Below, in pieces: positions 9,495 to 38,844 of a DNA stretch of 38,844 bases. The first letter of the stretch is position 1. Each line of letters starts with the position of its first letter. Both the position numbers and the translations under genes were made by a program. The notes under the pieces were generated by a model. The model was given only the letters and a program-made list of their open reading frames with translations, made no database searches and was not told the origin of the DNA. This stretch comes from Nitrospiraceae bacterium (GTDB lineage: Bacteria; Nitrospirota; Nitrospiria; Nitrospirales; Nitrospiraceae): positions 1 to 38,844 of the forward strand of contig JBFGRM010000001.1 in NCBI GenBank assembly GCA_041563675.1, in the 5' to 3' direction.

Positions 9495-9511
9495 CCCGGC
9501 CCTTCCCTGTG

Positions 9512-9544
9512 AAACGGGCGGAGTCAACGCTCCGCCCGTTTTAA
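9512..9544 (+). terminator. Rho-independent terminator after the sigma factor gene
   Basis: AAACGGGCGGAG-tcaacg-CTCCGCCCGTTT followed by T. This is a 12-bp perfect stem beginning 18 nt after the stop. Confidence 0.8.
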
Positions 9545-9591
9545 CCAGGTCGTGTCCCCCTGATTTGGGTTCCCCTGTTCTGGCTATGCTC

Positions 9592-21546: not shown

Positions 21547-22248
21547 TCACTCAGCATGGCGAGGTCCGGTTGCCGGCTGGCTCTCGGGCGTCCCTGCCCG
21601 GTGAGAGCCCCCGGATCGTGATTTCGGTTGCGCAACCGCTCCGAGCTCGGCGATCCGTTCCATGACGGTCCGGCTGACATGTTGAAAAAATTGCTTTCCG
21701 GCATAGTGTGCGGCATTCGATGAGAAGTCGAGGGGCTCGCCGATCCGGACCCGGATCGGGCGAAGCCGGATCCACACCGCTCCCACCGGAAGGACATCGT
21801 GAGTCCCCTCCAGGTAGACCGGCAAGACGCGACAGCCCGTCTCCGCGACGATGATGCCGATGCCGGGCTTACCGGGCCCGAGTCGGCCGTCCTTTGACCG
21901 CGTCCCCTCCGGGTAAATGACGACTGCCTTGCCCCCCTTGATGAGCTCGATCGCCGTGCGAAAGCTCTCGCGATCCAGACGGTAGTGCCGCATGGGGATC
22001 CAGCCGAGGCGGCGCAGGAGGGGCCCAAGGAGGCGATTTGGAAACAGATCATACCGCCCGAGAAAATAGGCCCGTCGGGGCAGCGCGCACCCCAATGCCG
22101 GAATGTCGAGATAGCTGGCATGGTTCGCGGCGACGAGCAACCCTCCCTGCATGGGCACGTGTTCTTTGCCGAGGGTCCGAAACCGGAACAGCACCCGACC
22201 AACGGCGATGAACAGACCCCGAAAGCATCCATAGAAAAAACCGCTCAC
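21547..22248 (-). CDS. plsC: 1-acyl-sn-glycerol-3-phosphate acyltransferase
   Basis: The acyltransferase motifs are ANHASYLD (HX4D variant) and YPEGTRS. The start overlaps the cmk stop (22245-22248). Confidence 0.88.
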   Translation of the reverse strand: MSGFFYGCFRGLFIAVGRVLFRFRTLGKEHVPMQGGLLVAANHASYLDIPALGCALPRRAYFLGRYDLFPNRLLGPLLRRLGWIPMRHYRLDRESFRTAIELIKGGKAVVIYPEGTRSKDGRLGPGKPGIGIIVAETGCRVLPVYLEGTHDVLPVGAVWIRLRPIRVRIGEPLDFSSNAAHYAGKQFFQHVSRTVMERIAELGAVAQPKSRSGGSHRAGTPESQPATGPRHAE

Positions 22249-22931
22249 AGCCTAGCTTCGATCACCTCGAGCATGCGCGCGACAACGGTCTCGACCTCCA
22301 GCTTCGACGTGTCGATCGAGCAGGCGTCAGGCGGCACGACCAGCGGCGCCTGCGTGCGCGTGCGATCCCGGGTGTCACGCTCCTCGATCTGACGTTTCGT
22401 CTCGTCCAGGCCGGCGGTATGCCCCGAAGCCCGAACGTCCCGGTGGCGCCGCTCGGCGCGTACCTGGACGTCGGCGTCCAGGAAAAACTTCACGTCGGCC
22501 TGCGGAAACACCTTCGTGCCCAGGTCGCGCCCTTCCGCCACGGTGCCCCGGCCAGCCGCGATCCCGCGCTGCACTGGCAGCAGCCACTCCCTCACCACCG
22601 GATAGGCGGACACGACCGAGGCGATCGCGCTGATCTCCGGTGTTCTGATCTCCTCGGCGACGTCTCCTCCGTCGACGAGGACGCGCGTGCAGCCCAACGC
22701 CGGCTCGAGCGTAACGGTGGTCGCGGGGAGGAGCGCGGCCACGGCATCCGGGTAATGCGGATCCACGCCGGACGCGTTGACCTTCCAGGCCAGGGCCCGG
22801 TACAAGGCACCGGAATCGAGGTAGAGATACCCCAGGCGCGAGGCCAGCAGCCTCGCGACGGTACTTTTCCCCACGCCTGCGGGACCGTCAATGGTAATGA
22901 CGAAGCTCCGGGCGGAGGCTCGTTCCTGCAA
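22245..22931 (-). CDS. cmk: Cytidylate kinase
   Basis: Motifs are ITIDGPAGVGKSTVARLLA..LGY.YLDSGALYRA and GRDLGT.VFP.A..KFFL.A....RA.RR. Confidence 0.93.
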   Translation of the reverse strand: MQERASARSFVITIDGPAGVGKSTVARLLASRLGYLYLDSGALYRALAWKVNASGVDPHYPDAVAALLPATTVTLEPALGCTRVLVDGGDVAEEIRTPEISAIASVVSAYPVVREWLLPVQRGIAAGRGTVAEGRDLGTKVFPQADVKFFLDADVQVRAERRHRDVRASGHTAGLDETKRQIEERDTRDRTRTQAPLVVPPDACSIDTSKLEVETVVARMLEVIEARL

Positions 22932-22954
22932 GCTATCAACAGGCCGGCTGTGTA

Positions 22955-24301
22955 TTATAGCTTCCCCCAGGATGATGTCAATAATTCCAATAGCTTGCTT
23001 TCGAATCCAGGGAACGAGGTCTCGATCGAGTCGGCCTGGTCGATATGGACCGGCGTATCGGCGAGCAGGGCCGCAACAGCCAACGACATGGCGACGCGAT
23101 GGTCCCCGTGACTGGTGAAGCGCCCCCCCTTCAGCAGGGGTGTCTTACCACGACCGACGCCCCTGATGCGGGCCCCGTCCGGGGTTTGCTCGATCCCGAC
23201 ACCCATCTTCCCGAGCTCCGAAGCCATGGTGGCGATCCGATCGCTCTCCTTGTGCCTCAGCTCCTCGGCCCCCGTGATGTCGGTCTCTCCCTCGGCCAGG
23301 GCCGCCGCCACGAACAAGATCGGAAACTCATCAATGGTCTGAGGGATGCGCTCCGCCCCAATACTCACCCCGTGCAACGCCGCGGAGCGAATGCGCAGAT
23401 CCGCCACGGGTTCCCCGCCCTCCTCGCGCAACCGGAGCAGCTGGAGGTCGCCTCCCATCTCCCTCAGGATGTCGAGACATCCCGTGCGGGTCGGATTGAC
23501 ACCCACCCCCTGGATGGTCACGTCGGAACCGGGGATCACCGAGGCGGCCACGGCAAAAAACGCGGCGGCTGAGAGGTCACCAGGCACTACCATCGTCCGT
23601 GGACCGCTCCAGCCCACCGACTGCCGCCCCTCGACCTCCACCGTCGTGCCGTCGACACGAATTGGCACGCCAAGGCTCCGGAGCATCCGCTCGGTATGGT
23701 CGCGCGACGGCCTGGGCTCGACGATCCGCGTGGTGCCCTCGGCGAACAGTCCGGCCAGGAGCAGCGCCGATTTCACCTGCGCGCTGGCGACGGGCGACTC
23801 ATACGTGATGCCGCGGAGACGACTTCCCGAGACCGCCAGCGGGGCCAGCTCCCCGCCCTTTCGGCCAGTGATGGTCGCCCCCATCTGGCGGAGGGGCCGG
23901 ACGATCCGTCCCATCGGCCGGCGCCTGATCGACTCATCCCCCGTCAGGACGGTGAAAAAATCCTGCCCCGCCAGCAGGCCGGCTAGCAACCGGATGCCGG
24001 TCCCGGAGTTCCCGCAATCGATCGGTCGGTCGGGCTCCGCGAGTCCCCACCGCCCCTTCCCTGAAACGCGGAGCGCATCGGGCGTCTCCTGAATCTGGAT
24101 GCCCATCGCCCTGAACGCGCGCGCGGTGTTGAGGCAGTCTTCGCCGGGGCAGTACCCGGCGATCATGGTCTCGCCCTCGGCCAGCGCGCTGAGCACGATG
24201 GCCCGATGCGTGATGGACTTATCGCCGGGAACCGTGGCGGTACCCCGCAGGGGCCCGCCGGCCGCCTTGATCGTCAGTGTCTTCATGCCATGGGCCATCA
24301 T
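22955..24301 (-). CDS. aroA: 3-phosphoshikimate 1-carboxyvinyltransferase (EPSP synthase)
   Basis: Motifs are VPGDKSITHRA, NSGTGIRLL, LRRRPMGR, KESDR and HGDHRVAMS. An alternative start is ATG 24286 (MKTLTI...). Confidence 0.93.
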   Translation of the reverse strand: MMAHGMKTLTIKAAGGPLRGTATVPGDKSITHRAIVLSALAEGETMIAGYCPGEDCLNTARAFRAMGIQIQETPDALRVSGKGRWGLAEPDRPIDCGNSGTGIRLLAGLLAGQDFFTVLTGDESIRRRPMGRIVRPLRQMGATITGRKGGELAPLAVSGSRLRGITYESPVASAQVKSALLLAGLFAEGTTRIVEPRPSRDHTERMLRSLGVPIRVDGTTVEVEGRQSVGWSGPRTMVVPGDLSAAAFFAVAASVIPGSDVTIQGVGVNPTRTGCLDILREMGGDLQLLRLREEGGEPVADLRIRSAALHGVSIGAERIPQTIDEFPILFVAAALAEGETDITGAEELRHKESDRIATMASELGKMGVGIEQTPDGARIRGVGRGKTPLLKGGRFTSHGDHRVAMSLAVAALLADTPVHIDQADSIETSFPGFESKLLELLTSSWGKL

Positions 24302-24313
24302 CGGGACAGGTCG

Positions 24314-25210
24314 TTAGTGAACCCGTTCGCGCAGTTGCTTGGCACGCGCCATCAGCTTTTCCAGCCCGGCGGCATCGCCCGCGTTGACCAAGGCCCGGAA
24401 CTCCGCCAGGTGTCGCTCATAGACCTCGATCATGCGCACGAGGTTGTCGCGATTCCAGAGACAGATGTCGCGCCACATTTCCGGTGAGCTGGCCGCGATG
24501 CGGGTCGTGTCACGCAGCCCGCCGCCGCCGTAGGCCAGGAGGTCCTGCTCCGGCTTCACCCGATCTTCGAGTTCCCCCAAGGCCGTCATCAGCGAGAATG
24601 CCGCGGCATGGGGCAGGTGACTGACCGCCCCTAGAACCTCGTCGTGCACGAAGGGATCCATGGTCAGCACCGTGCTGCCGGCCTGCTCCCACAGGGAGCG
24701 CACGGTCCCCAGCGCCTCCTGGCTGGTGCGCGCAGTCGGCGTGATGATGCAGCGGGTGCCGCGAAACAGATCCGGGGAGCCGGCGGCTACCCCTACCTTC
24801 TCCTTGCCGGCGATCGGATGCGCGCCGACAAAGTGGACCTGCGGCGGGAGCAAGCCTTCGGTTCGCTCGACCAAGGGGCCCTTCACACTGCCGACGTCGG
24901 TGACGACGCAGCCTCGGCTCAACTGTCCGGCCCAGAGGCTGAGCTGGCGCTCATACGTGTCCACCGGGGTGGCAAGGACCACGAGGTCAGCGTCGCGGAC
25001 GCCTTCGGCCGCGTCTCGCACAAACCGGTCGATGGCCCCCAGACGCTGCGCCGCCTCGAGATTCTCGATACGCCGGCCGATCCCGACGACGGTCTCAGCC
25101 ATTGCCAGCCGCTTGAGGACCATGCCCAGCGACCCGCCGATGAGCCCGACACCGATAATGGCGACGTGTTTGAAACGGGGAGTCATGCGCTCCTTACTCA
25201 CGGGTGACAA
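24314..25210 (-). CDS. tyrA: Prephenate dehydrogenase
   Basis: The Rossmann motif is VAIIGVGLIGGSLG. Also DVGSVK, HFVGAHPIAG and SHLPH. Confidence 0.88.
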   Translation of the reverse strand: MSPVSKERMTPRFKHVAIIGVGLIGGSLGMVLKRLAMAETVVGIGRRIENLEAAQRLGAIDRFVRDAAEGVRDADLVVLATPVDTYERQLSLWAGQLSRGCVVTDVGSVKGPLVERTEGLLPPQVHFVGAHPIAGKEKVGVAAGSPDLFRGTRCIITPTARTSQEALGTVRSLWEQAGSTVLTMDPFVHDEVLGAVSHLPHAAAFSLMTALGELEDRVKPEQDLLAYGGGGLRDTTRIAASSPEMWRDICLWNRDNLVRMIEVYERHLAEFRALVNAGDAAGLEKLMARAKQLRERVH

Positions 25211-25275
25211 CCGGCCGAAAACAGGAGCGCCAGGCGGGAGGCAACGCGGAGATCAGTCTTCATTGCTTCGCACGG

Positions 25276-26289
25276 TCACATCTCACGCCCGATCGCGTTG
25301 GCGATCTTGGACAGCTCTTGCATCAGATCCTTGAACTTGGTCGGTTTGATCGACTCTTCGCCGTCGCACAACGCGCATTCCGGCTGCGAGTGCACTTCGA
25401 TCAACAGACCGTCCGCCCCGGCCGCCACCGCCGCCTTCGCCATGGGAGCCACCAGGTTCCATTTGCCGGTGGCATGACTCGGGTCGACGATAACCGGCAG
25501 ATGGGACAGCTCCTTCAAGGCCGGCACGGCCGCCAAATCCAAGGTGTTGCGGTATTGCGTCTCGAACGTCCGGATCCCGCGTTCGCACAACATCACATTC
25601 CGGTTGCCTCGAGACATGATGTACTCGGCAGACAAGAGAAACTCTTTGATTGTCGCGGACAGTCCTCGTTTCATGAGGACCGGCTTGTCGTAGGATCCCA
25701 CCTCTTTCAGCAGCTCGAAGTTCTGCATGTTGCGCGCACCGATCTGGATGATGTCGGCTTTGGCGAGAAACAGCTCAATATCGCGTGGGTCCAGGATCTC
25801 GCTGACCACGGGAAGCCCCGTCTGCTTCTTCGCTTCCAGCAGATAGTCCAGACCTTCACGCCCGACTCCCTGAAAAGAGTACGGGCTGGTGCGCGGTTTG
25901 TACGCCCCTCCCCTGAGCACGCTGGCCCCCGCAGCCTTCACCTCATGGGCAATGCCCACGGTGAGCTCGAGTTTCTCCACCGCGCAGGGCCCCGCCATCA
26001 TGGCGATCTTCTTGCCCCCAATCTTGACGCCGTCCACCTCGATCACCGTGTTCTCTTGCTTGAACTCCCGGCTCACCAGTTTCCACGGGGCCAGAATCGG
26101 CGTGACGCTTTCCACTCCGGGAAAGGCTGTGAGGGGCTGATTCTGGAGCAGGCGATCGTCTCCGATGATGCCGACGATGGTGCGCTCCTCCCCCTTTGAC
26201 AGATGGGTCTTGAAGCCCAGCTCCCGAAGTCGATCCAGGAGGTGGTCTACCTGAGATTCGCTGGCGTCTGGTCGCAAGACAATGATCAT
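25276..26289 (-). CDS. aroF: 3-deoxy-7-phosphoheptulonate (DAHP) synthase, type I-beta, with an N-terminal ferredoxin-like regulatory domain
   Basis: The N-terminal [13 protein letters not shown]...L...G resembles the Thermotoga-type regulatory domain. The core carries [30 protein letters not shown] and DPSHATG. Confidence 0.9.
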
Positions 26290-26304
26290 AGTCCCCTCTG
26301 GGCG

Positions 26305-27384
26305 TTACCGCCCCAGCACCTTCCCGAAAGCTTCCAGGAAGCGGCTGTTCTCGTCGGGCAACCCAACCGTCACACGCAACATGCGTCCGCCCATGTGGCG
26401 GACGATCACGCCTTCGCGGAGCAAGGCCTGAAACACGTCGGCGCCGTCCCGCCCGGCGTCGAAGTACAGAAAATTCGCCTCGCTCGGCACGACCTGGATT
26501 CCCAACTTTCCGAGTTCCTGCTGCAACCGAAGGAGTTGCGCCTCGTTCATCGCGCGGCTCTCAGCGACGTGATCCTCGTCTTCCAGGGCCGCCAGCGCCG
26601 CGTGTTGGGCAACGCTGTTGGCGTTAAAGGGCGGCCGGACACGGTTCAGATATCCGGCGATCTCCGTAGTTGTCAGCCCGTACCCGATACGGAGACCCGC
26701 CAGGCCATAGATCTTGGAGAACGTTCTCAGGACCGCCACGTTCCGGCCCGCTGCCAGATGGTGCAAGGCATTCGGAAAGCTCGCGCTCCGGACGTATTCG
26801 TAATAGGCCTCGTCGAACACCACGATGACGTGGTCGGGCAAACGGGCCATGAGACGTTCCACCTCATCGCCTGTCACGATCGTGCCCGTCGGGTTGTTCG
26901 GGTTGCACACAAACAACAGCTTGGTCCTCGGCGTCACCGCTTCGGCCATGGCCGGCAGGTCGTGTCGCCAGTCCTTCAGCGGCACCTCAACGGACTTGGC
27001 GTGGCAGGCGGTCACCACCATTTTATAGATGACAAAGGTTCGGTCAGCCATCACCGCTTCGTCGTCCGGCCCGAGAAAGGCCCGGGCCAGGAGCCCGAGC
27101 ACCTCGTCCGACCCGTTGCCAAGGATGACCTGGTCCGATTCAACCTTCCAGCGGTGCGCGAGGGCGGCGCGCAGCTTGTGGGCGCCGCCGTCCGGATAGC
27201 GATTGAGCGTTGCGGCGGTGGCGGCGATGGACGCGACGGCTTTGGGCGAGGGGCCGCGGGGGTTTTCATTGGAGGCCAGCTTGACGGCGCGGGCGATACC
27301 GAGCTCGCGCTCCAGCTCCTCGACGGGCTTCCCGGGCACATAGGGTACCAGCGAGGCGATGTGGCGGTTGACGTTCAGCGACAT
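26305..27384 (-). CDS. hisC: Histidinol-phosphate / aromatic aminotransferase (class II)
   Basis: Motifs are LASNENP.GPSP, NPNNPTG, DEAY.EY, and RTFSKIYGLAGLRIGY (the PLP lysine). Confidence 0.9.
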   Translation of the reverse strand: MSLNVNRHIASLVPYVPGKPVEELERELGIARAVKLASNENPRGPSPKAVASIAATAATLNRYPDGGAHKLRAALAHRWKVESDQVILGNGSDEVLGLLARAFLGPDDEAVMADRTFVIYKMVVTACHAKSVEVPLKDWRHDLPAMAEAVTPRTKLLFVCNPNNPTGTIVTGDEVERLMARLPDHVIVVFDEAYYEYVRSASFPNALHHLAAGRNVAVLRTFSKIYGLAGLRIGYGLTTTEIAGYLNRVRPPFNANSVAQHAALAALEDEDHVAESRAMNEAQLLRLQQELGKLGIQVVPSEANFLYFDAGRDGADVFQALLREGVIVRHMGGRMLRVTVGLPDENSRFLEAFGKVLGR

Positions 27385-27388
27385 AGGC

Positions 27389-28582
27389 TTAGCGATTGAA
27401 TGGGAACGACCCGAGCACCTTCATGAACAGGCAGCGGCCCTTGATCTCCTCCAAGGCCTTCTTGACGCGGTCCTCTTCGATGTGCCCTTCCACGTCGATG
27501 AAGAACAGGTACTCCCAGGCCTTCCGCCGGGAAGGCCGTGATTCGATCTTCGTCATGTTGATCCCGTGCGAGGCGAACGGGCGAAGCAGATCGTACAGGG
27601 CACCGACCCGGTCCTTCACCGACAGCATCACGCAGGTTTTGTCCTTCCCCGTTCGCTCGGACGGCTTCTGCGAGAGAATGAGGAACCTCGTGAAGTTGTT
27701 GATGTTGTCCTCAATACGCGCGCGTAGCACCTTCAACCCGTAGAGTTGGGCCGCAAGCTCGGATGCGATGGCCGCCGCGGACGCGTCATCCAGACAGAGC
27801 TCGGCGGCGCGGGCCGTGCTCGGAACCTCGAGGACGGCGACGTCCGGCATATTGGTCTCCAGCCAGCTGCGACATTGGGCGATCGCGTGCGGATGGGAGT
27901 AGACCTTCTTGACGTCCTCCATCCTCCCCGCCTTGGAGAGCAGGTGGTGTGACACCTCCTGCAACACCTCGCCATAGATTTTCAAATTCGAGTCGATGAA
28001 CATGTCGAGGGTGTGATTCACCACGCCCTCGGTCGAATTTTCGATTGGCACCACGCCGAAGTTCGCGCGTCCGCGCTCCACTTCATTGAAGACCTCCGTG
28101 ATGCTGTTCACCGGCACATATTGCGCGGACTCGCCGAATTTCTGAATACAGGCCAGGTGCGTGAAGGTGGCGCGGGGCCCCAGATAGGCAACTTTTTGGG
28201 GACCCTCCAGCGAAAGGGAGGCGGACATGATCTCGCGGTAAACCGGACGGATGGCGTCGCTCGGGAACGGCCCCGTGTTCTGGCGCACGAGCCGATCGAC
28301 GACCTCGGCCTCGCGGCCGGGGGTATGGAGATGGTCGCCGGCCCCGGCTTTCCTCTTCAGTTTCCCGATCTCGATCACGTGCTGGGCGCGCTCGTTGAGC
28401 AGGCGCAGAATCGCGTCATCGAGCCGGTCGATCTCGCCTCGAAAGTGCTGAATGTCAGGTTCGGATCCCACGGAGGTGGCTGCTCCTTCGCGATCGCAGG
28501 TGGATGGTCGCACACCCGCCCCGGGCTGGTGGCCAGCTTCACCGAGCACCGGTCGACGTGCCGGGGACACCCCTCCAATCAT
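27389..28582 (-). CDS. pheA: Bifunctional chorismate mutase / prephenate dehydratase (P-protein) with a C-terminal ACT domain
   Basis: The CM part is FRGEIDRLDDAILRLLNERA. The PDT part is VAYLGP.ATFTH and PIENSTEGVV. The ACT part is SRPSR..WEY.FF(I)D.EGH. The real start may lie downstream of ATG 28582, because the first ~40 aa are low-complexity. Confidence 0.9.
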   Translation of the reverse strand: MIGGVSPARRPVLGEAGHQPGAGVRPSTCDREGAATSVGSEPDIQHFRGEIDRLDDAILRLLNERAQHVIEIGKLKRKAGAGDHLHTPGREAEVVDRLVRQNTGPFPSDAIRPVYREIMSASLSLEGPQKVAYLGPRATFTHLACIQKFGESAQYVPVNSITEVFNEVERGRANFGVVPIENSTEGVVNHTLDMFIDSNLKIYGEVLQEVSHHLLSKAGRMEDVKKVYSHPHAIAQCRSWLETNMPDVAVLEVPSTARAAELCLDDASAAAIASELAAQLYGLKVLRARIEDNINNFTRFLILSQKPSERTGKDKTCVMLSVKDRVGALYDLLRPFASHGINMTKIESRPSRRKAWEYLFFIDVEGHIEEDRVKKALEEIKGRCLFMKVLGSFPFNR

Positions 28583-29785: not shown

Positions 29786-30142
29786 TCATTCGTCCAGCTG
29801 ACATTGGCTCATCAAGCCGCTGTCCTCACTGCCGCAGCGGGACGGGACCATGGAGGTGCCGACCGTCGAGTACCCCTCGGGGCAGCTCCCACAGACGGCC
29901 AGCAGCCGGCTCCCGACCGGGACGCATTGGACGAGGGTCGGATCCCCCTCCTTGCAAATCTCGGGGGCGGTCGTGACGCCCGTCTTGGCATAGCCTTCCG
30001 GGCAGGACCCGCAGACCATCCGATTGCTCGGCGTCTCGTCATCCGCCGATTGGCTTCTTGCCGCATCCTGATGGCCGACGCTCAGTGCCAGGAGGACGCC
30101 AACCACGAGACCGGCCTTGATGGTGCGCACAAACTGCTCCAT
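29786..30142 (-). CDS. Small secreted cysteine-rich protein with an internal duplication (118 aa)
   Basis: It has a signal peptide (MEQFVRTIKAGLVVGVLLALSVG) and two modules, VCGSCPEGYAKTGVTTAPEICKEGDPTLVQC and VCGSCPEGYSTVGTSMVPSRCGSEDSGLMSQC, with 4 Cys each. The ATG lies 5 nt after the ruvA stop, with AGGGGG upstream. Confidence 0.65.
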   Translation of the reverse strand: MEQFVRTIKAGLVVGVLLALSVGHQDAARSQSADDETPSNRMVCGSCPEGYAKTGVTTAPEICKEGDPTLVQCVPVGSRLLAVCGSCPEGYSTVGTSMVPSRCGSEDSGLMSQCQLDE

Positions 30143-31741: not shown

Positions 31742-31777
31742 AAAAAGGGCTCACCCGGCTGGCGCCGGATGAGCCCT
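31742..31777 (-). terminator. Rho-independent terminator ending the sulfate-assimilation operon
   Basis: The minus strand reads AGGGCTCAtCCGGCgccaGCCGGgTGAGCCCTTTTTcg. It has an 8-bp outer plus a 5-bp inner stem, then T5. It begins 28 nt after the stop of the 31806..32576 gene. Confidence 0.8.
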
Positions 31778-31805
31778 CCCATCGGAAGAGAACCTGTGGA
31801 CTGTC

Positions 31806-32576
31806 CTACATGAACTTCATGAACTTGTCCTTGGCCTCGTCCATCACCTCGGCCGTCACGCTCGTGGCGCCCTGCTCGCGCGCCAGCCGTTCGATTTCGC
31901 GCCGCGCCATCGGGCGGATGAAATCCGGAATATTATCGAGCCGCCGCTCCGCTTCCGGGGACCAGGCGATGCCGTTCGACTCGTTCTTGGAGTCGTCCAT
32001 CACTTGCAGGGTGATGCTCTTGAACCCCCGCTTGCGGGCGTAGGCTTCGACGCTGCTCTGCACCATCGGTTTTACGAAGGACGGAAGGCGATCCAACCGT
32101 TCCTTCGCATCCGGCGTCCAGGTGAAATCTGACGCGCCGCCCTGTGAGCCCGCCGACGCCCCCGTGCCGGTCAGCCCCATCTGGGCGACCATTTCCGAGA
32201 ACGGACACCCCCCACTCGACTTCTCCCCCTCCGAGGTGGTCGGAGAGGAGTTGCTCGGGGCCTCGGCGGCCGTGCTCCCGACGGGTTGCCCGCCGTGGAT
32301 TTTCTCGTTCAGATAATTGGTCATCTGATCCGCGCCGGCCAGCGCATCCTCCTTGAGCGTCCCTCTGGTCATCTCGAAGGGCTCCGCCGGCGCCGATCGA
32401 CCGCCGAGCTTGACGCCCAGGGAGCTGACCATCTGGGTTTCACCCGGGTTGGTCACCATCGAGAATTTCGCCCCGCAGGAGGGGCAGCCGAAGAAGACAC
32501 CCAGGGATCCCTCCGCGGGCTTCTCGACTTTTTCGAAGCTCATGTAGGTTTCGCAGTTGAGACAGACAAACTTCAT
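31806..32576 (-). CDS. Zinc-ribbon protein with two C-terminal PCP_red-type domains
   Basis: The N-terminus is CLNC-N17-CPSC. A Ser/Gly/Ala-rich linker contains GGCPF. The two domains are FTWTPDAKERLDRLPSFVKPMVQSSVEAYARKRGFKSIT and IAWSPEAERRLDNIPDFIRPMARREIERLAREQGATSVT. Confidence 0.8.
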   Translation of the reverse strand: MKFVCLNCETYMSFEKVEKPAEGSLGVFFGCPSCGAKFSMVTNPGETQMVSSLGVKLGGRSAPAEPFEMTRGTLKEDALAGADQMTNYLNEKIHGGQPVGSTAAEAPSNSSPTTSEGEKSSGGCPFSEMVAQMGLTGTGASAGSQGGASDFTWTPDAKERLDRLPSFVKPMVQSSVEAYARKRGFKSITLQVMDDSKNESNGIAWSPEAERRLDNIPDFIRPMARREIERLAREQGATSVTAEVMDEAKDKFMKFM

Positions 32577-32649
32577 GGCGAACCCCCAGCGAAGAATGGC
32601 GTCATAGGATCATGTGCGTCGCCGACGCGCTCTGGCTGTGCCCCACGAA

Positions 32650-33570
32650 TCAGAGCTTCTCGGCGAGCACTTTCTTGTAATCCAGAATCGTCGTCACCCG
32701 CTCGGCAATGTCCCGGTAGCGTTGAATGGTCGGGTAACTTTCGTCCAGCAGCGGGGTCCCTTTGTCGAAGGTCCGGGCCAGGGTGCGATCGAACGGGATC
32801 CGTCCGAGCAGGGGCACGCCCATGGCCTCGCACAGTGCGTCCGTGTTGCCCTCGAAGAGCTCGTGCTCCGATCCGCAGCTCGGGCACCGGTACGAGCTCA
32901 TGTTCTCGACCACGCCCAAGACCTTGATGCCCAGGTCGCGGGCATAGGCCACCGACTTTTGGACGACGTCGGAGGCGACCTCCGACGGGGTCGTGACCAC
33001 GATCGCGCCGGCAAGATCAGGGATGAACCCGGCGATGACCGGCGGCTTGTCGGCGGCCGCGCCCGGAGGGAGGTCGGTCAGCAGAAAGTCCAGATCACCC
33101 CAGAGAACATCGGCGAGGAATTCCCGGATCACGTTCATCTCCATCAGGCCCAGCCAGACCGGGCTGACGTCCATCGGCCCTTTCCAGCGCACCGGGGCGG
33201 CAGCCTGGAGAAAGAAGTCCATCGAGCCGACCTTGATCCCCAGCGGGCCCACCGGTGGGGTCGCGCCCTCGGGCGTCATGGTGAGCTGCTGCCCGTGCAT
33301 CCCCAGCATGCGGGGGACGCAGGGACCGTTCAAGTCCACGTCGAGGAGGCCCACGCGCTGCCCCTGGCGGGCCAGCGCGAGCGCGAGGTTCACGGTCGTC
33401 ATGCTCTTGCCGACGCCGCCCTTGCCGCTCATGACCACGAGTTTATTGCGGATCCCGGCCATGCGGCTCTGCACCTGCTGCATCTGCCCGGTGATCTGCT
33501 GGACGACCTTGGCGTCGTCGCTGTACTGGAGCCTATTGAGGATGCTCTTGAGATCCTTATCGTCTGCCAT
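32650..33570 (-). CDS. Mrp/NBP35/ApbC-family P-loop ATPase (Fe-S cluster carrier)
   Basis: The deviant Walker A is SGKGGVGKSMTTVNLA. Also LLDVDL.GP, DLPPG, and the CPSCGSEHELF cluster-bridging Cys pair. Confidence 0.9.
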   Translation of the reverse strand: MADDKDLKSILNRLQYSDDAKVVQQITGQMQQVQSRMAGIRNKLVVMSGKGGVGKSMTTVNLALALARQGQRVGLLDVDLNGPCVPRMLGMHGQQLTMTPEGATPPVGPLGIKVGSMDFFLQAAAPVRWKGPMDVSPVWLGLMEMNVIREFLADVLWGDLDFLLTDLPPGAAADKPPVIAGFIPDLAGAIVVTTPSEVASDVVQKSVAYARDLGIKVLGVVENMSSYRCPSCGSEHELFEGNTDALCEAMGVPLLGRIPFDRTLARTFDKGTPLLDESYPTIQRYRDIAERVTTILDYKKVLAEKL

Positions 33571-33653
33571 CGACCCTGCCTCTTCTCTTTCGGCACCCCG
33601 CGGGAGGAAAAGCGACTTACCGTATCATGGGGATTTCGACCCCGTCAAACCGC

Positions 33654-35528
33654 TCAGATCGAGTATTGGAACACCGGCTGGTCGCCGATCGCCGTCGCCA
33701 GGATGCCGCTGCGCTTGAGCTGCTCGATGACCTGCCGCGCCGCCTCGTCGAAGTCCTCCGGCCCCGCGAAGGCGAGATCGGCGTCCGGCGGAGCCGCCTC
33801 CTGACCTTTGCTCATGTGAACCGACACCACCGGGGCCGGGTAGACGAGCGTGCGAATGATCTGCTCCGCCTCCTGGTGATCGTGGCCGAACGGGTTGGTC
33901 GTCGAGATGACGATCATCCCGGTGTCAATGAGCAGTCGCGCCACCTCTCCACAGCGCCGGGCCGCCTCCGTCGACTCCGCGCTCGCATCCGCCCCCAGGT
34001 CCGCGTCCAGCCCGTGCTTCAGGTTCTCACCGTCCAGCAAGTAGGCATGGCGTCCTTCGGCCACGAGGAGGGACTCCAGCTTTCGCGCCAGAAAGGCCTT
34101 GCCGGTGTTCGCCGCCCCCGTGAAGAGCACGATGGCGGCGCGATGCCCGTAGTGGCGGGCGCGGTCTTCAGGCCGAACCTCCCCCTTGACCCATGCGAAA
34201 TCACGCTCGCGCGCCTCGTTCCGCAAGACTTCCTGTTCGTCGTGGACCAGCGCCGTGATGATGCCGCCACCGGAAATGTCGTATTCGTCCACCAGGACGA
34301 AGCGTCCGCTGTGCTCGAAGGATGTGGAAAGGTCGAACGCGATCGGGGATCTCGTGCGGATGGTGACCTCCGCCACCTCGTTGCGTTGCACGTCCCGTCT
34401 GGCCCGCTCTTCACCCAGGTTGGCCGCCGACACGATGCGATGGACGGCAGCGATCTCGCAGGCGACTTCGCGGGTTGCCAGGCGCAGGACGTAGCGTCGG
34501 CTGCCCTGTAACGGCCGCCTTCCGAGCCAGAAGACGTTGGCCTTCAACGCCGTCGACACGAGGGGGAGCGCGGCCTCATGCGAGGCGATCTCACCGCGCT
34601 CGACGAAGATCTGCTCGTCCAGCGTGACGCCGATCGACTCCCCCGCCTGCACCTCCACGGGAGGCGGCTCGATGTTGAAGGCCTCGATGCTCTTGACCAT
34701 GGCTGTCTTGTTGGAGGGCGAGAACACGAGCCGGTCGCCCACCCGCAAGCGCCCGGCGGCGATGCGGCCGGCGAGAATCCGTCGGGCGTCGAATTTGTAG
34801 ACGTCCTGCACCGGAAATCGGAGAGGCTTGTCGGCCCTGGCCGTCTCTTTCTTGAAGAGGCCTAGGCTGTCCAGCACCGTCGGCCCGCTGTACCAGGGCA
34901 TCCGCTCGCTGGGCGAGGCGATGTTGTCCCCCATCTTCGCGCTCGCGGGCAGGACGCGGTCGGGGACGACATTCAAAGACGACAGGTATTCACGGTACTC
35001 CTTCTCAATACCGTCGAAGACATCCTGCCGGTACCCCACCAGATCCATCTTGTTGACCACGACCGCCACCTGCTTGACGCCCAGAAGGGAAAGCAACAGA
35101 CCATGCCGTCTCGATTGATCCCGGACGCCTTCGAGCGCATCGATCACCAGGACCGCGGCCTCGGCTCTGGCCGCCCCCGAGACCATGTTCTTGAGGAACT
35201 CCTTGTGGCCCGGCGCATCGATGATGATGTACTGGCGTCCCCGCCATCCGAAGAACGTCCGCGCCGTATCGATCGTGATGCCTTGCTCTTGCTCTTCCAG
35301 GAAGGCGTCGAAGAGGAACGCGTATTCGAACTCCTTCCCCTGCTGCTGGCAGATCGCACGGACCTTGTCCAGCTTGCCGACCGGCAGGGAGTCCGTGTCG
35401 GCATACAGGCGTCCCAGCAGGGTCGACTTGCCGTGATCGACGTGCCCGACGATCACGATGTTCATATGCTCCGCCGCTTTTTCCTGAAGTACAGGCGTGG
35501 TTTCCGTGGTCACCGTCATCCTCTTCAC
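33654..35528 (-). CDS. cysN: Sulfate adenylyltransferase subunit 1 (CysN GTPase) fused to an APS-kinase-like C-terminal domain
   Basis: The GTPase motifs are [15 protein letters not shown] and NKMD. The C-terminal ~180 aa align to CysC but carry altered motifs: [21 protein letters not shown] and ISTTNPF. Confidence 0.9.
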
Positions 35529-35589
35529 TTCCTTCCCAATTTCAGCTGCGTCTTTTTTTTACTTTTAAATTTTCCCTTTTTACTTGCTG

Positions 35590-36387
35590 CTACATGTAGC
35601 CATCTTTACGCAGCAACTCCATCCCCCGGCCCTCATCCTGGGCGCGCCCGGACCGCTCCGCCACGTTGGTCTTCCTCAGCTCCTCGATAATGTCGTCCAC
35701 GGTCCTGGCTGTGGATCGGATCGGGAACGTGCAGGGGGCGCATCCCAGGCTTCGGTATCGCGTGCCCTCGCCCTTATCCAGGTAGAGGTCGATGAAGGGA
35801 ATGCTTTCCAGTTTGATGTATTCCCAAATGTTGATCTCCGTCCAATCCAGCAACGGATGGATGCGAATGTGCGTCCCGGGTGGAAAGAACGTCTTGTACT
35901 GGTCCCAGAGCTCGGGCGGCTGATCCCGGAAATCCCAATCGCTGTTCTTGTCGCGGGGTGAAAAATACCGTTCCTTCGCCCGCGTGCCCTCCTCGTCAGC
36001 GCGCACGCCCAGAATCAGTCCCGTATAGTGCTTGTCCCTGAGCACCTGCTTGAGCCCGTCCGTCTTGAGCGCGTTGCAGCAGGTAACGCGCCCGAGGGTG
36101 TGATTCATCCCGCCGGCCAGGGCTTCCGTGTTCTTCCCGATCACCAGGTTGAGCCGCCATTCGCGCGCAAGTCGGTCGCGATACTCGATCATCGCCGGAA
36201 TCTTGTAGGTGGTGTCGATATGGATGAGCGGAAAGGGCACGTGGCCGAAGAACGCCTTCCGCGCGAGCCAGAGCAACACCGTCGAGTCTTTCCCCATGGA
36301 CCAGAGCATCGCGAGGTTGCTGAAATGTTTGTAGGCCTCACGAAGAATGTAGACGCTTTGACTTTCGAGTTGCCGAAGATGGTTCAT
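35590..36387 (-). CDS. cysD: Sulfate adenylyltransferase subunit 2
   Basis: Motifs are [31 protein letters not shown] (PP-loop), IDTTYK and YRSLGC.PCT. Confidence 0.93.
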
Positions 36388-37511
36388 CGGGCCAATGCCT
36401 CCGTCGACGTGGGATTCTGCGTGACCGGCAAGCCGCCCGGCGCCTCGCCCAGTCGGGCCGCCGCCGCGCCACCGGAACTCCGGGCGCAGCGGCCCGTCTG
36501 AAGGGTCCCGAGCTTGCGTGCCGCGGCCCCGGATTCAAGCGCATGCCGGACAATGGGAAGCGCGGCTCGAAGGGAGGCGGCTTTCCCGGACGCATAGAGG
36601 AGGTGAGCGGCGTTCAGCAGGACCCAGTCGCGCTGACCACCTCGCACCTCGTTGGTGAGCAACCGCCGGAGCAACTCCGCTTCCTTGTCCGCGGACCCGG
36701 ACGCCGGCCTGGCCATGACGCGTTCCTCCGCCGCCTCCAGTCCCACATCGCGTGGGTGAAGAGAGAACGGGGTCATGCGCTCCCCGCGCAGCTCGAGCGC
36801 CTTGGTGCCGGAGGAGATGGAGAGCTCTGACGTGCCCTCGACGCCTCGGACGATGAGGGCATGCTCCGCACGCAGCATCGTGAGGGCCTCACCGGTCTTT
36901 TCGAACTGGGCAGCCTGGGCGACGCCGATGACCTGGGCGCGCGCCCGCGCAGGATTCAGCAGGGTGGCCACCACGTGAAACACATTGCGCAAGCCGAACT
37001 CTCGGCGCAGATCGAGGAAGCGAGCCACGGGCGGGTGGTAGAGGGCGATGTCCAGGTACGCAAAGCCGAGTGAGGCGACGGCCGTAGCCGCGGCTGCGGC
37101 ATCCCCATCCACCGGGAGGCCCAACTCCCCCAGGAGCGAGCCCGGCCCGGTCCCACCGTCCGCGGCGTCATGACCGTGCATGAGGATCGTCGCGCCAGCC
37201 GAGGCCGCTGTGATGGCGGCGGCGATCGAGGCGTGAAAGGTCTCGCGTTTTTCCCCGTACCACGGAAGGTCGACGAGGGGAAGGTCGCGGGGCACGGCCA
37301 CGCGCGGGACATACTCTCGGGTCGTCGCTGTGAAGGCGGCCAGCTCCGCCACGGACTCGATCTTCACGCGCAGTCCCAGCAGCAACGCGCCCACCTGGGC
37401 GGGCGTGGCCTGCTGCTCGATCAGCATGCGCGCGGCCTGCTTCGCCTCCTCCCAGGTGAGGTCCTTGCTCGCCTTCTGTCCCTTACCGATTTTCGCGATC
37501 AGCTCGTGCAT
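36384..37511 (-). CDS. Anthranilate phosphoribosyltransferase-like protein (glycosyltransferase family 3 fold) lacking the PRPP-binding motifs
   Basis: The N-terminal helical bundle is [36 protein letters not shown]. The core aligns to TrpD, but GTGGD becomes PWYGE, KHGN becomes MHGH and G.DE becomes GTSE. The ATG shares nt 37511 with the upstream stop (TGATG), and the stop overlaps the cysD ATG (ATGA). Confidence 0.75.
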
Positions 37512-38005
37512 CAAAATGTCATCACCTGGTCCGCCGTCATGACTTCCTCTTTCCAGAAGGCCTCGGCCGCCTGCACCTCGTCCAACTCCGGGATCAGCTT
37601 GTCGATCGTCATCTCGAACAGCCCCAGGGAGCGTTGGCAGACGGAGAACTTGGCATCCCCGCGTTCCTTGATCTCACGCAGCAGGGCCGGCAGATCATCC
37701 CGTTTCTCTTCCTGCAGCATGTCGCGGATTTTCGACTCTCGCCCCTTGAACGCCTCCGAGAGAACGATGTCCCGCACCTTGTCCACGCTCAACCGTGCGA
37801 CGGCTTCGTCCCTGAACAACATGCTGACTTGGACGCCCGATTCCGCCGCGATGCGGGCAAACTCACAGGCCTGCAGGAGGTTGTTGTAGGCCCCCCGCGT
37901 CAAAATGATCGCCACCTTCTTCACGTCCTTTACCTCTTGCTCCGGCTGCGTAGGGCGCGATTCCTTTGCACGAGGCCCCGAGCCTTTCTTGAGGATGATC
38001 TTCAT
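37511..38005 (-). CDS. DsrE/DsrF-like family protein (COG2210-type, 'peroxiredoxin family' sulfur-carrier-like)
   Basis: Motifs are KKVAIILTRGAYNNLLQACEFARIAAESGVQVSMLF and the C-terminal AKFSVCQRSLGLF. ATG 38005 overlaps the cysH stop (ATGA at 38002-38005). The ORF-track extension to 38098 would overlap cysH by 97 nt. Confidence 0.6.
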   Translation of the reverse strand: MKIILKKGSGPRAKESRPTQPEQEVKDVKKVAIILTRGAYNNLLQACEFARIAAESGVQVSMLFRDEAVARLSVDKVRDIVLSEAFKGRESKIRDMLQEEKRDDLPALLREIKERGDAKFSVCQRSLGLFEMTIDKLIPELDEVQAAEAFWKEEVMTADQVMTF

Positions 38006-38712
38006 TGATGAAGCCCGCACTCGGTCTTGGGCCGGTTTTGCCAGCGGCCCGAACGGGAATCCTCTCCGGGCTCCACCGGCGCCGTGCAATGGGTGCACCC
38101 GATGCTCGGGTAGTTCCGATCGTGCAGCGGGTTGTACGGGACCTCATGGACCTGGATGTAGGCCCAGACGTCCGCGGCCGTCCACTTCGCCAAGGGGTTG
38201 ACCTTCACCAAGCCGAATTTGTGATCCCATTCGACCAGTCCCGCCTGTGCGCGCGAGGGAGCCTGGTCCCGACGAATGCCCGTGATCCACGCGTCGTAGC
38301 CACGTAGGACCCGGGACAGGGGCTCGACCTTGCGCAGGGCGCAGCAGCGGTCGGGATCACGCATCCACAAGGCCTCACCGTGCTCCCGTGCCTGCCGTTC
38401 CGGCGTCAGAAGCGACTTGACCTGCAGCACCTGCTCGGGGCGAAGGCCGTACCGTTCAATGACCCGGTCCCGTGTCGCGAGTGTCTCCGGGAACAGAAAA
38501 TCCGTGTCGAGGTAGAAGAGCGGGGTGTCCGGCTTGAGGCGGTGAATCATGTCGACCAGGACCACGTCCTCTGCCCCGAAGCTGCACGCCAGGATCACCC
38601 GCGGAGTAAAGCGCTCCAGCGCATCGGCCAGGACATCCTGTGGCTGCCGTGCTTCGAAGGAATCGCTGAGCGCCTTCAGGTCAGCTTCCGTTGGTCTCAC
38701 ATTCGTCGACAC
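38002..38712 (-). CDS. cysH: Adenylylsulfate (APS) / PAPS reductase, thioredoxin-dependent; the Fe-S-cluster subtype, which points to APS as substrate
   Basis: The PP-loop-like motif is ACSFGAEDVVL. The paired Cys motifs CC (DRCCALRK) plus CxxC (SIGCTHC) are characteristic of [4Fe-4S] APS reductases. The C-terminal catalytic motif is ECGLH. Start is GTG 38712, with GGAGA upstream. Confidence 0.9.
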   Translation of the reverse strand: MSTNVRPTEADLKALSDSFEARQPQDVLADALERFTPRVILACSFGAEDVVLVDMIHRLKPDTPLFYLDTDFLFPETLATRDRVIERYGLRPEQVLQVKSLLTPERQAREHGEALWMRDPDRCCALRKVEPLSRVLRGYDAWITGIRRDQAPSRAQAGLVEWDHKFGLVKVNPLAKWTAADVWAYIQVHEVPYNPLHDRNYPSIGCTHCTAPVEPGEDSRSGRWQNRPKTECGLHQ

Positions 38713-38750
38713 GTTGGTGACGTTCTCCGCCGCATGGTGTGTTGAGTGAT

Positions 38751-38844
38751 CTACCCCTCGACCTTCTCGACGAGGACCTTGTAGTGCTCGGCGCTCGGTT
38801 CGAGCGGTTCTTGCAGAAGGACCTTGTGTCCGTCGTTCTGCAAG
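38751..38844 (-). CDS. 3' end of an unidentified CDS (31 codons, stop TAG at 38751-38753) immediately upstream of cysH
   Basis: The minus strand translates as ...LQNDGHKVLLQEPLEPSAEHYKVLVEKVEG*. It lies 38 nt from the cysH start, so it is probably co-transcribed. A sulfite reductase would fit the context, but nothing in the 31 residues proves it. Confidence 0.4.
   Translation of the reverse strand, partial: LQNDGHKVLLQEPLEPSAEHYKVLVEKVEG

Follow-up and report, generated by a model that had tools for sequence, protein, structure and literature searches.

An APS-route sulfate-assimilation operon of Nitrospiraceae with interleaved lineage-specific genes, including a TrpD-fold protein that lacks PRPP motifs

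Assimilatory sulfate reduction has the standing of a textbook pathway and is considered closed. In clusters of the adenosine 5′-phosphosulfate (APS) route, for example those of Pseudomonas, Mycobacterium and Bacillus, cysDN(C) is found together with an Fe-S-type CysH and a siroheme sulfite reductase (SiR) of the SiR/NirA type. Accessory proteins of assimilatory sulfite reduction have a precedent in DUF2849 and DUF934 ('CysX'), small uncharacterised proteins encoded beside cysI and required for sulfite reduction (Price et al., bioRxiv 10.1101/072470). Here we analysed a stretch of 38,844 nucleotides from a Nitrospiraceae bacterium (GenBank assembly GCA_041563675.1, contig JBFGRM010000001.1, positions 1 to 38,844; hereafter the window), whose minus strand carries seven complete genes and one gene fragment, head-to-tail, at 31742-38844. 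The locus shares the core of the textbook clusters, namely CysD, CysN, an Fe-S-type CysH, a monomeric SiR with two NIR_SIR repeats and, in relatives, an upstream Rrf2 gene. It differs from them in that TusA is fused to the C-terminus of the SiR, CysN ends in a degenerate CysC-like domain, and four non-textbook genes, from families unrelated to DUF2849 and DUF934, are interleaved or appended. A globally important nitrifier group thereby consistently adds proteins without an assigned role to the pathway. We consider, with moderate confidence, that the region is an APS-route assimilatory sulfate-reduction operon typical of Nitrospiraceae, closed by a strong terminator, and that its four extra genes are lineage-specific additions, linked to it in function and falling into three kinds; the roles that we infer for all four from sequence comparison are putative. 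The most novel element of the operon is a Nitrospirota-specific, TrpD-fold clade that lacks the phosphoribosyl pyrophosphate (PRPP) motifs and is publicly annotated as trpD.

Domain calls were made with Pfam and NCBIfam profiles at their curated cutoffs, and coordinates are window positions. The features of the locus are as follows.

38751-38844, minus strand: 3′ end of sir::tusA (30 codons and the stop), with the translation LQNDGHKVLLQEPLEPSAEHYKVLVEKVEG before the stop; the gene exits the window.
38002-38712, minus strand: cysH, thioredoxin-dependent Fe-S-type APS reductase, 236 aa, GTG start; PF01507, 179.6 bits.
37511-38005, minus strand: gene for a DsrE-like small thiol protein, 164 aa; PF02635, 32 bits (cutoff 22.7), and PF13686, 28.5 bits.
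36384-37514 (37511 if the start is ATG), minus strand: TrpD-like gene, fold of anthranilate phosphoribosyltransferase (PRT), 375-376 aa; PF02885 and PF00591.
35590-36387, minus strand: cysD, ATP sulfurylase small subunit, 265 aa; NF003587, 356 bits against a cutoff of 195.
33654-35528, minus strand: cysN, ATP sulfurylase GTPase subunit with a degenerate APS-kinase-like C-terminal domain, 624 aa; PF00009, PF22594 and PF01583.
32650-33570, minus strand: gene for a P-loop Fe-S carrier of the Mrp/NBP35/ApbC type, 306 aa; PF10609, 248 bits over positions 2-245 of 246.
31806-32576, minus strand: gene for a Zn-ribbon protein with two PCP_red repeats, 256 aa; PF08369, 124 bits (cutoff 32.5) in two stretches.
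31742-31776, minus strand: intrinsic terminator with a 13-bp GC-rich stem, a GCCA loop and U5, beginning 29 nt past the stop of the PCP_red gene.

The operon order, completed with relatives, is (rrf2)-sir::tusA-cysH-dsrE-like-trpD-like-cysD-cysN(degenerate APSK)-mrp-PCP_red. The original prediction, which had been made from the letters of the window, gave this gene order, each of the domain calls, three start/stop overlaps and the terminator, and Pfam, NCBIfam and the sequence bear out all of them; every Pfam domain that it expected was recovered when the profiles were run. It was also right that none of the four extra genes belongs to textbook cys clusters. Upstream of cysH it had placed an "unknown 3′ end"; the gene fragment is real, but it can be named as the TusA end of a SiR::TusA fusion. 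The fragment at 38751-38844 matches its closest relative (L013) at 29 of 30 residues, and it aligns with the C-termini of the 818-842-aa proteins, each with two NIR_SIR repeats and a TusA domain, that are encoded upstream of cysH in relatives.

To define the conservation of the operon, one genome per GTDB species was scanned with a Nitrospiraceae-weighted alignment, which gave 80 loci; further metagenome contigs were added for the counts, and an alignment of the divergent subgroup was used separately against metagenome contigs. Loci were annotated by tblastn with the window proteins as queries, and presence was counted only where the flanks were long enough. At least 220 species-level genomes encode a relative of the TrpD-like gene. 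The closest of the 80 loci, 86% identical, is from a metagenome-assembled genome (MAG) labelled "Nitrospiraceae bacterium". We found an invariant order in the 80 species-level Nitrospiraceae genomes, Rrf2, SiR::TusA, CysH, (DsrE), TrpD-like, CysD, CysN-APSK-like, (Mrp), PCP_red, with the following numbers of loci in which each component was present among those that could be checked.

SiR::TusA: 65 of 65
CysH: 83 of 83
CysD: 80 of 80
CysN: 63 of 63
PCP_red: 51 of 54 (94%)
Mrp: 49 of 58 (84%)
DsrE-like: 19 of 78 (24%)

Wherever the DsrE-like gene occurs, its neighbours are cysH on one side and the TrpD-like gene on the other. Both the TrpD-like and the DsrE-like protein have abundant homologues, and those with a taxon name are from Nitrospira, Nitrospiraceae or Nitrospirota. 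The arrangement is therefore conserved across Nitrospiraceae loci and not unique to this genome; had it been unique, the original prediction would have fallen.

Conservation within the family proves little by itself, because the flanking genes thrS, infC and rplT on one side and yebC and ruvAB on the other are equally syntenic. The whole 20-kb neighbourhood (pheT, rplT, rpmI, infC, thrS, the cluster, yebC, ruvA, ruvB, pheA) is syntenic in every long contig, as would be expected if the four genes were passengers unrelated to sulfate assimilation and held in place by the frozen gene order of Nitrospiraceae. Further observations count for such passengers and against a functional link. The DsrE-like gene was found in only 19 of 78 loci, and Mrp is missing or displaced in 9 of 58. 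Some members of the TrpD-like clade are unlinked to sulfur genes: one (L113) lies between asmA-like and caspase-like genes, and another (L008) adjoins a methyltransferase gene, at a distance of 5 kb from an Rrf2 gene and a SiR without TusA. Frozen synteny cannot explain, however, that the TrpD-like gene occurs within sulfate-reduction clusters in three gene orders, one of them beside Sat and AprAB. A fourth order belongs to a sister subgroup.

Arrangement 1, Nitrospiraceae loci: the window's own order.
Arrangement 2, at least 14 metagenome contigs: Rrf2-SiR::TusA-CysH-CysD-CysN-TrpD-like-(LMW-PTP/ArsC-like)-Mrp-PCP_red.
Arrangement 3, four contigs from Nitrospiria MAGs: AprA-AprB-like-SiR::TusA-TrpD-like-Sat, with overlapping or 4-nt junctions.
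Arrangement 4, two lineages of the sister subgroup: TrpD-like beside a two-domain CbiX sirohydrochlorin chelatase (160.7 bits), followed by a class-I tryptophanyl/tyrosyl (W/Y) tRNA synthetase.

In arrangement 3, where AprA scored 788 bits (cutoff 557) and Sat 577 bits (cutoff 387), the roles of CysDN and CysH are taken by the non-homologous Sat and AprAB, and the TrpD-like gene still stands between SiR::TusA and the ATP sulfurylase. A gene that is retained both when its cluster is rearranged and when non-orthologous enzymes take over the reactions shows the classical mark of functional coupling. We regard the association of the TrpD-like clade with sulfite/sulfate reduction as well supported and highly likely. 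The original prediction had tied the inserted genes to the pathway, and for the TrpD-like gene this tie goes beyond frozen synteny, since the gene has moved position and has persisted through the replacement by Sat and AprAB. Its co-occurrence does not track the Fe-S-type CysH, as had been considered, because it was also found with AprAB plus Sat. For the other genes, the passenger explanation is opposed by the Mrp-PCP_red pair, which is still attached in arrangement 2 despite the TrpD-like and LMW-PTP insertions, by the obvious partner that the DsrE-like protein has in the SiR-fused TusA, and by the very tight spacing, together with a simple scan that gave no internal coding-strand terminators. 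We consider it improbable that the four genes are mere passengers.

The linkage of the four genes to the pathway does not make them one unit. The original prediction had grouped them into a single accessory module, a grouping that does not agree with their different phyletic patterns (DsrE-like 24%, Mrp 84%, PCP_red 94%). The TrpD-like gene is in all sampled clusters and beyond, and it moves independently of the Mrp-PCP_red pair. They look like three or more additions that are independent of one another: a thiol relay of TusA and DsrE, an Mrp plus PCP_red cofactor pair and the TrpD-like protein. Against a common link of the four to the pathway stands the absence of Mrp, PCP_red and the DsrE-like protein from the Sat-type clusters.

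Several other genes were seen in these contexts. In arrangement 2, a protein of the low-molecular-weight protein tyrosine phosphatase (LMW-PTP)/ArsC type (128-131 aa, VCxENSCRS, PF01451 89.7 bits) is encoded between the TrpD-like gene and mrp (L101:4830-5219), where its gene overlaps the TrpD-like stop; the same insert was found in 11 other arrangement-2 loci (L100, L102, L104, L105, L107-L112 and L121), and neither the window nor any arrangement-1 locus has it. One arrangement-2 locus (L121:4710-7849) also has two open reading frames (ORFs) between cysN and the TrpD-like gene, one of 747 aa and one of 298 aa that contains SSSCGLCG, which we read from their sequences as a putative molybdopterin-oxidoreductase-like protein and an FdhD-like sulfurtransferase. 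The CbiX genes of arrangement 4 lie at L093:9152-9931 and L097:~9047-9802, the latter identified by tblastn (56% identity to the L093 protein), with a divergent alpha/beta-hydrolase gene upstream and a tRNA synthetase whose size fits TrpRS. Radical-SAM genes at L008 were considered as a link of the TrpD-like gene to haem biosynthesis and dropped, as one of them carries a CofH_C domain, which presumably fits menaquinone (futalosine) enzymes better.

We further examined whether the TrpD-like protein can be an anthranilate phosphoribosyltransferase. It passes the TIGR01245 model marginally (203.8 bits, cutoff 199.05), which accounts for the public naming of its homologues as anthranilate phosphoribosyltransferase. 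Its AlphaFold2 (AF2) model (pTM 0.81) has TrpD structures as its best PDB matches in Foldseek, at template-modelling (TM) scores of 0.8-0.9; its C-terminal ~34 residues are a disordered tail that only the sub-lineage of the window has. With TrpD it shares the two-domain fold, 25-35% identity and the Arg, His and Asn-Pro residues of the anthranilate-channel region. The gene could then simply be trpD, lying by chance near aromatic amino-acid genes, as pheA, a DAHP synthase gene, tyrA and aroA are found 3-9 kb downstream in the window and the sister subgroup lies near the TrpRS-sized class-I synthetase. The PRPP-binding residues argue otherwise. In TrpD the GTGGD loop (β1-α5) binds the 5-phosphate of PRPP, and roles have been assigned to the residues of KHGN(R) and of the D-E Mg2+ site (PMC9835598). 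In the window protein GTGGD is absent and WYGEKR replaces GTGGDG (P-W-Y-G-E-K; clade consensus P-x-Y-A-G-K); clade-wide, D-x-P-x-Y-A-G-K stands for DTCGTGGD and xHG for KHGN. The window has MHGH and the clade xHGx, so that both N and R of KHGNR are gone, and at the D-E Mg site EGTSE (clade EG-[DE]PE) replaces DGLDE, with only the second acid retained. No trp biosynthesis gene (trpE/G/C/F/B/A) adjoins the TrpD-like gene in ~120 loci. The vicinity does not rescue a TrpD role either, because the aromatic amino-acid block downstream of ruvB (22245-28582, minus strand; pheA encoding chorismate mutase-prephenate dehydratase-ACT, an aminotransferase, 3-deoxy-D-arabino-heptulosonate 7-phosphate (DAHP) synthase, prephenate dehydrogenase and 5-enolpyruvylshikimate 3-phosphate (EPSP) synthase genes, then cmk) contains no trp genes. 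That the gene is a plain trpD is, in our view, very improbable, and relatives publicly named "trpD" should not count as tryptophan biosynthesis in annotation.

The protein also does not have the appearance of a decayed enzyme. About 60 positions are invariant across members of arrangements 1 and 3, many of them charged, which argues for a preserved binding site. We suggest that the TrpD-like protein looks like a re-tooled, predicted binding site. It had been described as "catalytically stripped", and the PRPP motifs are indeed gone, but the description misses the ~60 invariant positions and the loop, which is of the TrpD2/YbiB-like type.

TrpD2 proteins are members of the fold without TrpD activity, and YbiB binds polyanions (DNA and the acidic ObgE tail) in positively charged grooves (PMC10123104). 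The TrpD-like protein has in common with the DNA-binding, ObgE-binding and LexA-regulated TrpD2/YbiB proteins the fold, the loss of the PRPP motifs and a P-x-Y-[A/N]-G-[K/A]-[K/R] loop. The P-x-Y-A-G-K loop was also found in the YbiB-like proteins P0473 and P0494, the latter with YbiB structures (PSYNGAR) as its best PDB matches. Unlike TrpD2/YbiB, the clade is closer to TrpD in sequence and lies in a sulfate-reduction or siroheme context; against the YbiB model NF006005 the window protein scored 102.9, under the cutoff of 185, and no dinG or LexA box context was seen beside cys/sir/sat. The isoelectric point (pI) of the clade, 5.8-9.5, does not discriminate between TrpD and TrpD2. To delimit the clade, we searched 1.8 billion cluster representatives with the TrpD-like protein and identified a small set of clusters at 35-58% identity with the diagnostic loop change; ordinary TrpDs begin at ~185 bits. 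A profile of the divergent members gave a sharp clade edge, with 376 bits on its inner side and 289 on its outer side, and every member that carries a taxon name is assigned to Nitrospiria, Nitrospirales or Nitrospiraceae. The genome scan gave Nitrospiraceae only, and the taxonomic limit of the clade is that of the profile and 50%-identity representative searches. By these sequence criteria, the clade is a Nitrospirota-restricted branch of the anthranilate-PRT fold, apart from TrpD2, and it differs from TrpD in this restriction as well as in GTGGD, KHGN, the first D of the D-E Mg site and the trp-operon context, all of which it lacks. It would represent a third function for the TrpD fold, and its role may give a handle on the biochemical function of TrpD2/YbiB. 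Nitrospira-type clusters were also seen under labels of other phyla, one with the TrpD-like gene, cysD and cysN on L092 (JBKKAO010000248.1, a MAG labelled Burkholderiales) and one with full Nitrospira synteny on L003 (GCA_975848865.1, protein named Petrachloros mirabilis); for both, contamination during binning or assembly is a likelier cause than horizontal transfer.

What the protein does can be narrowed from its contexts. Most likely, it is a non-PRT protein that binds an anion and works as a partner of the SiR/ATP-sulfurylase axis. Candidate ligands would be a sulfonucleotide, AMP or pyrophosphate, each of which would fit the ATP sulfurylase neighbour, siroheme or sirohydrochlorin, or a protein partner such as SiR::TusA. 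Two points weigh against the sulfurylase side of this proposal: CysDN and Sat are non-homologous, which makes a complex with the sulfurylase itself hard to picture, and the common denominator of all TrpD-like contexts is SiR/siroheme (or CbiX), not sulfate activation.

The latter point opens a different explanation, in which the TrpD-like protein, Mrp and the PCP_red protein would all assemble the siroheme-[4Fe-4S] SiR, by siroheme and Fe-S delivery, with no role in sulfur intermediates or activation. The octacarboxylate siroheme or sirohydrochlorin would then sit in a TrpD2-like polyanion groove of the TrpD-like protein. All the contexts have only SiR or siroheme in common, as SiR::TusA in arrangements 1-3, CbiX in arrangement 4 and the SiR 5 kb off in L008, and the β1-α5 loop is common to the clade and the YbiB-like proteins, among which YbiB binds nucleic acid and an acidic peptide (PMC10123104). 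On the other side, no precedent for a siroheme chaperone was found in the open-access literature searched, a basic polyanion-binding surface is not obvious at the clade pI of 5.8-9.5, the CbiX association is limited to two lineages of the sister subgroup, and arrangements 1 and 3 couple the TrpD-like gene most tightly to the ATP-sulfurylase gene, not to sir.

The other two proteins bear on the same explanation, Mrp as a member of an Fe-S carrier family and the PCP_red protein through its domain. In Mrp, the GKGGVGKS P-loop and CPSC (CxxC) are conserved in 51 homologues. It shares with the Mrp/ApbC/NBP35/HCF101 carriers the full-length PF10609 domain, the deviant Walker A KGGVGKS and the CxxC bridging motif, and it differs from them in that its gene is dedicated by position to the cys operon, ~26 nt from the PCP_red gene. 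It falls below the equivalog cutoffs for ApbC (183 bits against 348) and MrpORP (257 against 450), and an assignment as MrpORP was rejected on the latter score. In seven species (L036, L039, L059, L061, L062, L069 and L086) no Mrp is detectable in the ~1.2 kb that separate cysN from the PCP_red gene, and at L036 this interval holds no plus-strand ORF of at least 100 aa; these intervals may hold decayed mrp genes or a different small gene.

The PCP_red protein is built of four layers, as seen in 53 homologues: a CxxC...CPxCG Zn-ribbon/rubredoxin-like part, a variable linker, an invariant GGCPFS and two PCP_red repeats. Five Cys are conserved, including that of the Cys-Pro-Phe motif, which we take to resemble the haem-regulatory CP motif and which would then speak for cofactor maturation. 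Because PCP_red forms the C-terminal end of BchB, one subunit of the protochlorophyllide (tetrapyrrole) reductase DPOR, siroheme is considered as a possible cofactor. The PDB sequence matches were only the BchB C-terminus and the small stand-alone PCP_red domains 2l09 and 2kru (nuclear magnetic resonance structures). The domain is thus common to BchB/ChlB and to stand-alone PCP_red proteins, with two clear repeats here. In contrast to BchB, there is no BchB body and no adjacent bch/chl gene, the match to the BchB models is confined to their last ~50 residues, none of the nitrogenase-like Oxidored_nitro body was found, and the protein has instead an N-terminal four-Cys ribbon, GGCPFS and a cys/mrp context. 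Both CysH and SiR require [4Fe-4S] clusters. Mrp may deliver these clusters to CysH and SiR, and the PCP_red protein, its tightly paired partner, may assist cofactor loading, perhaps of siroheme. That it loads the siroheme-[4Fe-4S] centre is an attractive, speculative idea. Two points count against it: tetrapyrrole binding by PCP_red is proposed by analogy with BchB in DPOR structures, and the single-sequence AF2 model of the protein is poor (pLDDT 55, pTM 0.29). As a whole, a pure cofactor-maturation role for the three proteins is possible but rather doubtful. The Mrp and PCP_red pair is a lead on the maturation of siroheme-[4Fe-4S] enzymes and on the orphan PCP_red domain.

Among the core enzymes, CysDN would make APS, the Fe-S CysH would reduce APS to sulfite via a thiosulfonate intermediate on its C-terminal Cys, and the siroheme/[4Fe-4S] SiR would reduce sulfite to sulfide, roles that are assigned by family homology. 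The CC...CxxC cluster-ligand motif and the C-terminal ECGLH are present in the CysH translation, which identifies it as the Fe-S APS-reductase type; the profile scores were 278 bits for NF002537 and 235.5 against a cutoff of 235.3 for TIGR02055. CysN, in turn, carries a truncated APS-kinase-like domain, with a PF01583 match only over 2-99 of 152 and a score of 452 against the bifunctional model NF004035 (cutoff 715). A complete APS-kinase domain has the Walker A GxxGxGK[ST] and DGDN; the C-terminal P-loop of CysN is TGxxxTGK[A/S], with GKA in the window, and DGEN stands in place of DGDN. As the APS-reductase pathway needs no 3′-phosphoadenosine 5′-phosphosulfate (PAPS), the domain is probably structural or regulatory, for which fungal ATP sulfurylase is a precedent. 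In all relatives TusA is fused at the C-terminus of a two-repeat siroheme sulfite reductase of ~830 aa, with the Cys of the DLRGxxCP motif conserved (fusion motif DLRGVxCP[LI]N). The fusion, of which L005:6601-9090 and L009:7468-9963 are examples, was found in 65 of 65 clusters with enough flank and is also present in the AprAB/Sat-type clusters; every cluster of arrangements 1-3 has the TusA domain with its Cys. A CymR-like Rrf2 regulator gene lies upstream of sir::tusA in relatives. No description of the SiR::TusA fusion was found in the open-access literature searched, nor of a TrpD-like, DsrE-like or PCP_red gene in cys operons, and either may be mentioned elsewhere.

The DsrE-like protein has two Cys that are invariant across 17 homologues, C47 and C123. 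In alignments, C123 falls on the Cys of two PDB entries, 2qs7 and 3pnx (the second entitled "putative sulfurtransferase DsrE"), and the protein thus has a DsrE fold with a conserved active-site Cys. It scored 20 bits against the DsrE2 model (cutoff 210), and no dsrF/H-like partner gene was seen in any gene-called locus examined. CysH catalysis proceeds through an enzyme Cys-S-SO3 intermediate, an established mechanism. In dissimilatory sulfur oxidation, TusA is an established partner of DsrE-family proteins in sulfur transfer (PMC11094781; references in PMC10839748), and TusA-DsrE pairs pass on persulfide or thiosulfonate sulfur (PMC11094781). Like the TusA-DsrE(FH)/DsrE3 relays of sulfur oxidisers, the present operon combines a DsrE-fold protein and TusA, each with a conserved Cys. 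Unlike them, it is an assimilatory, reductive operon in which TusA is fused to an assimilatory-type SiR, the DsrE-like protein has a second invariant Cys, and DsrF/H, DsrC, rhodanese and sHdr genes are absent. We infer that the TusA domain of SiR is the natural partner of the DsrE-like protein. From the conserved Cys of both proteins, the known TusA-DsrE partnership and the Cys-S-SO3 intermediate of CysH, we hypothesise a relay from CysH through the DsrE-like protein and TusA to SiR. The DsrE-like protein and the SiR-fused TusA would form a Cys-based relay for sulfite, thiosulfonate or persulfide, by which the sulfur would pass between CysH and SiR or leave SiR; this Cys-based hand-over is wholly conjectural, drawn from conserved residues. 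It could be at most an enhancer, because the absence of the DsrE-like gene from ~76% of clusters makes it dispensable, which weighs against the relay as a general part of the pathway. The pairing suggests protein-bound sulfur transfer in assimilation, which is so far known from dissimilatory sulfur oxidation.

A more ambitious picture would join these parts. In this picture, sulfate assimilation in Nitrospirota would be protein-guided, with a CysH thiosulfonate/DsrE-like/TusA relay, an obligatory TrpD-fold sulfonucleotide- or siroheme-binding subunit beside SiR::TusA and CysDN or Sat, and PCP_red and Mrp loading the siroheme-[4Fe-4S] centre. We put it forward tentatively, as a possibility that is unlikely to hold in full. 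If it is true, a protein-guided relay could keep sulfite away from, and nitrite out of, the siroheme enzyme in a nitrite-rich cell.

Finally, the junctions and transcription signals were examined. In the window, the cysH/dsrE-like and trpD-like/cysD junctions are ATGA stop/start overlaps, and the dsrE-like/trpD-like junction is TTGATG, with base 37511 common to TGA and ATG and an alternative TTG start at 37514; the remaining gaps are 61, 83 and 73 nt. Overlaps of 4 nt are common in compact bacterial operons, and the three overlaps are therefore unremarkable alone. For relatives, gaps were measured after positional filtering of the hits, since CysH and CysD (both PAPS_reduct) cross-match. The median gap is 7 nt from CysH to TrpD-like, 18 nt from TrpD-like to CysD (with a -4 nt overlap at 22 of 85 junctions), 26 nt from Mrp to PCP_red and 146 nt from CysN to Mrp, the last of which is 83 nt in the window. 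The overlaps of the window are a local feature, not a conserved hallmark. The claim that they signal stoichiometric partners could not be upheld, as the equivalent junctions in relatives are usually short gaps. The large cysN-mrp gap speaks against a single transcript, and mrp-PCP_red may be a separate transcription unit, with room for a second promoter. A simple promoter and terminator scan gave no coding-strand terminator and no sigma-70-like promoter inside the operon; the same scan missed the real terminal hairpin, and this absence of internal signals is therefore weak evidence. Rfam gave no element inside the operon. The terminal hairpin is GGGCUCAUCCGGC-GCCA-GCCGGGUGAGCCC followed by UUUUU, with a folding energy of -41.7 kcal/mol (z = -4.76; 0 of 200 shuffles fold as well).

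The 61-nt cysD-cysN spacer (35529-35589) is strikingly A-rich (GTAAAAAGGGAAAATTTAAAAGTAAAAAAAAGACG...) compared with a genome of ~63% GC, and the 1-kb stretch around it has the lowest GC (0.583) in the second half of the window; in relatives the length of this spacer ranges from -31 to +361 nt and is not conserved. Downstream of the terminator lie yebC, ruvA, a small Cys-rich ORF, ruvB and then the aromatic amino-acid block. The Cys-rich ORF (29786-30142, minus strand) encodes 118 aa with a hydrophobic N-terminus and an internally duplicated CGSCPEGY...G..T....C motif, has no Pfam match, and corresponds in position to an unannotated 160-219-aa ORF in relatives. A tRNA gene at 1642-1715 on the minus strand (RF00005, 72.8 bits) is the sole RNA-family match in the window.

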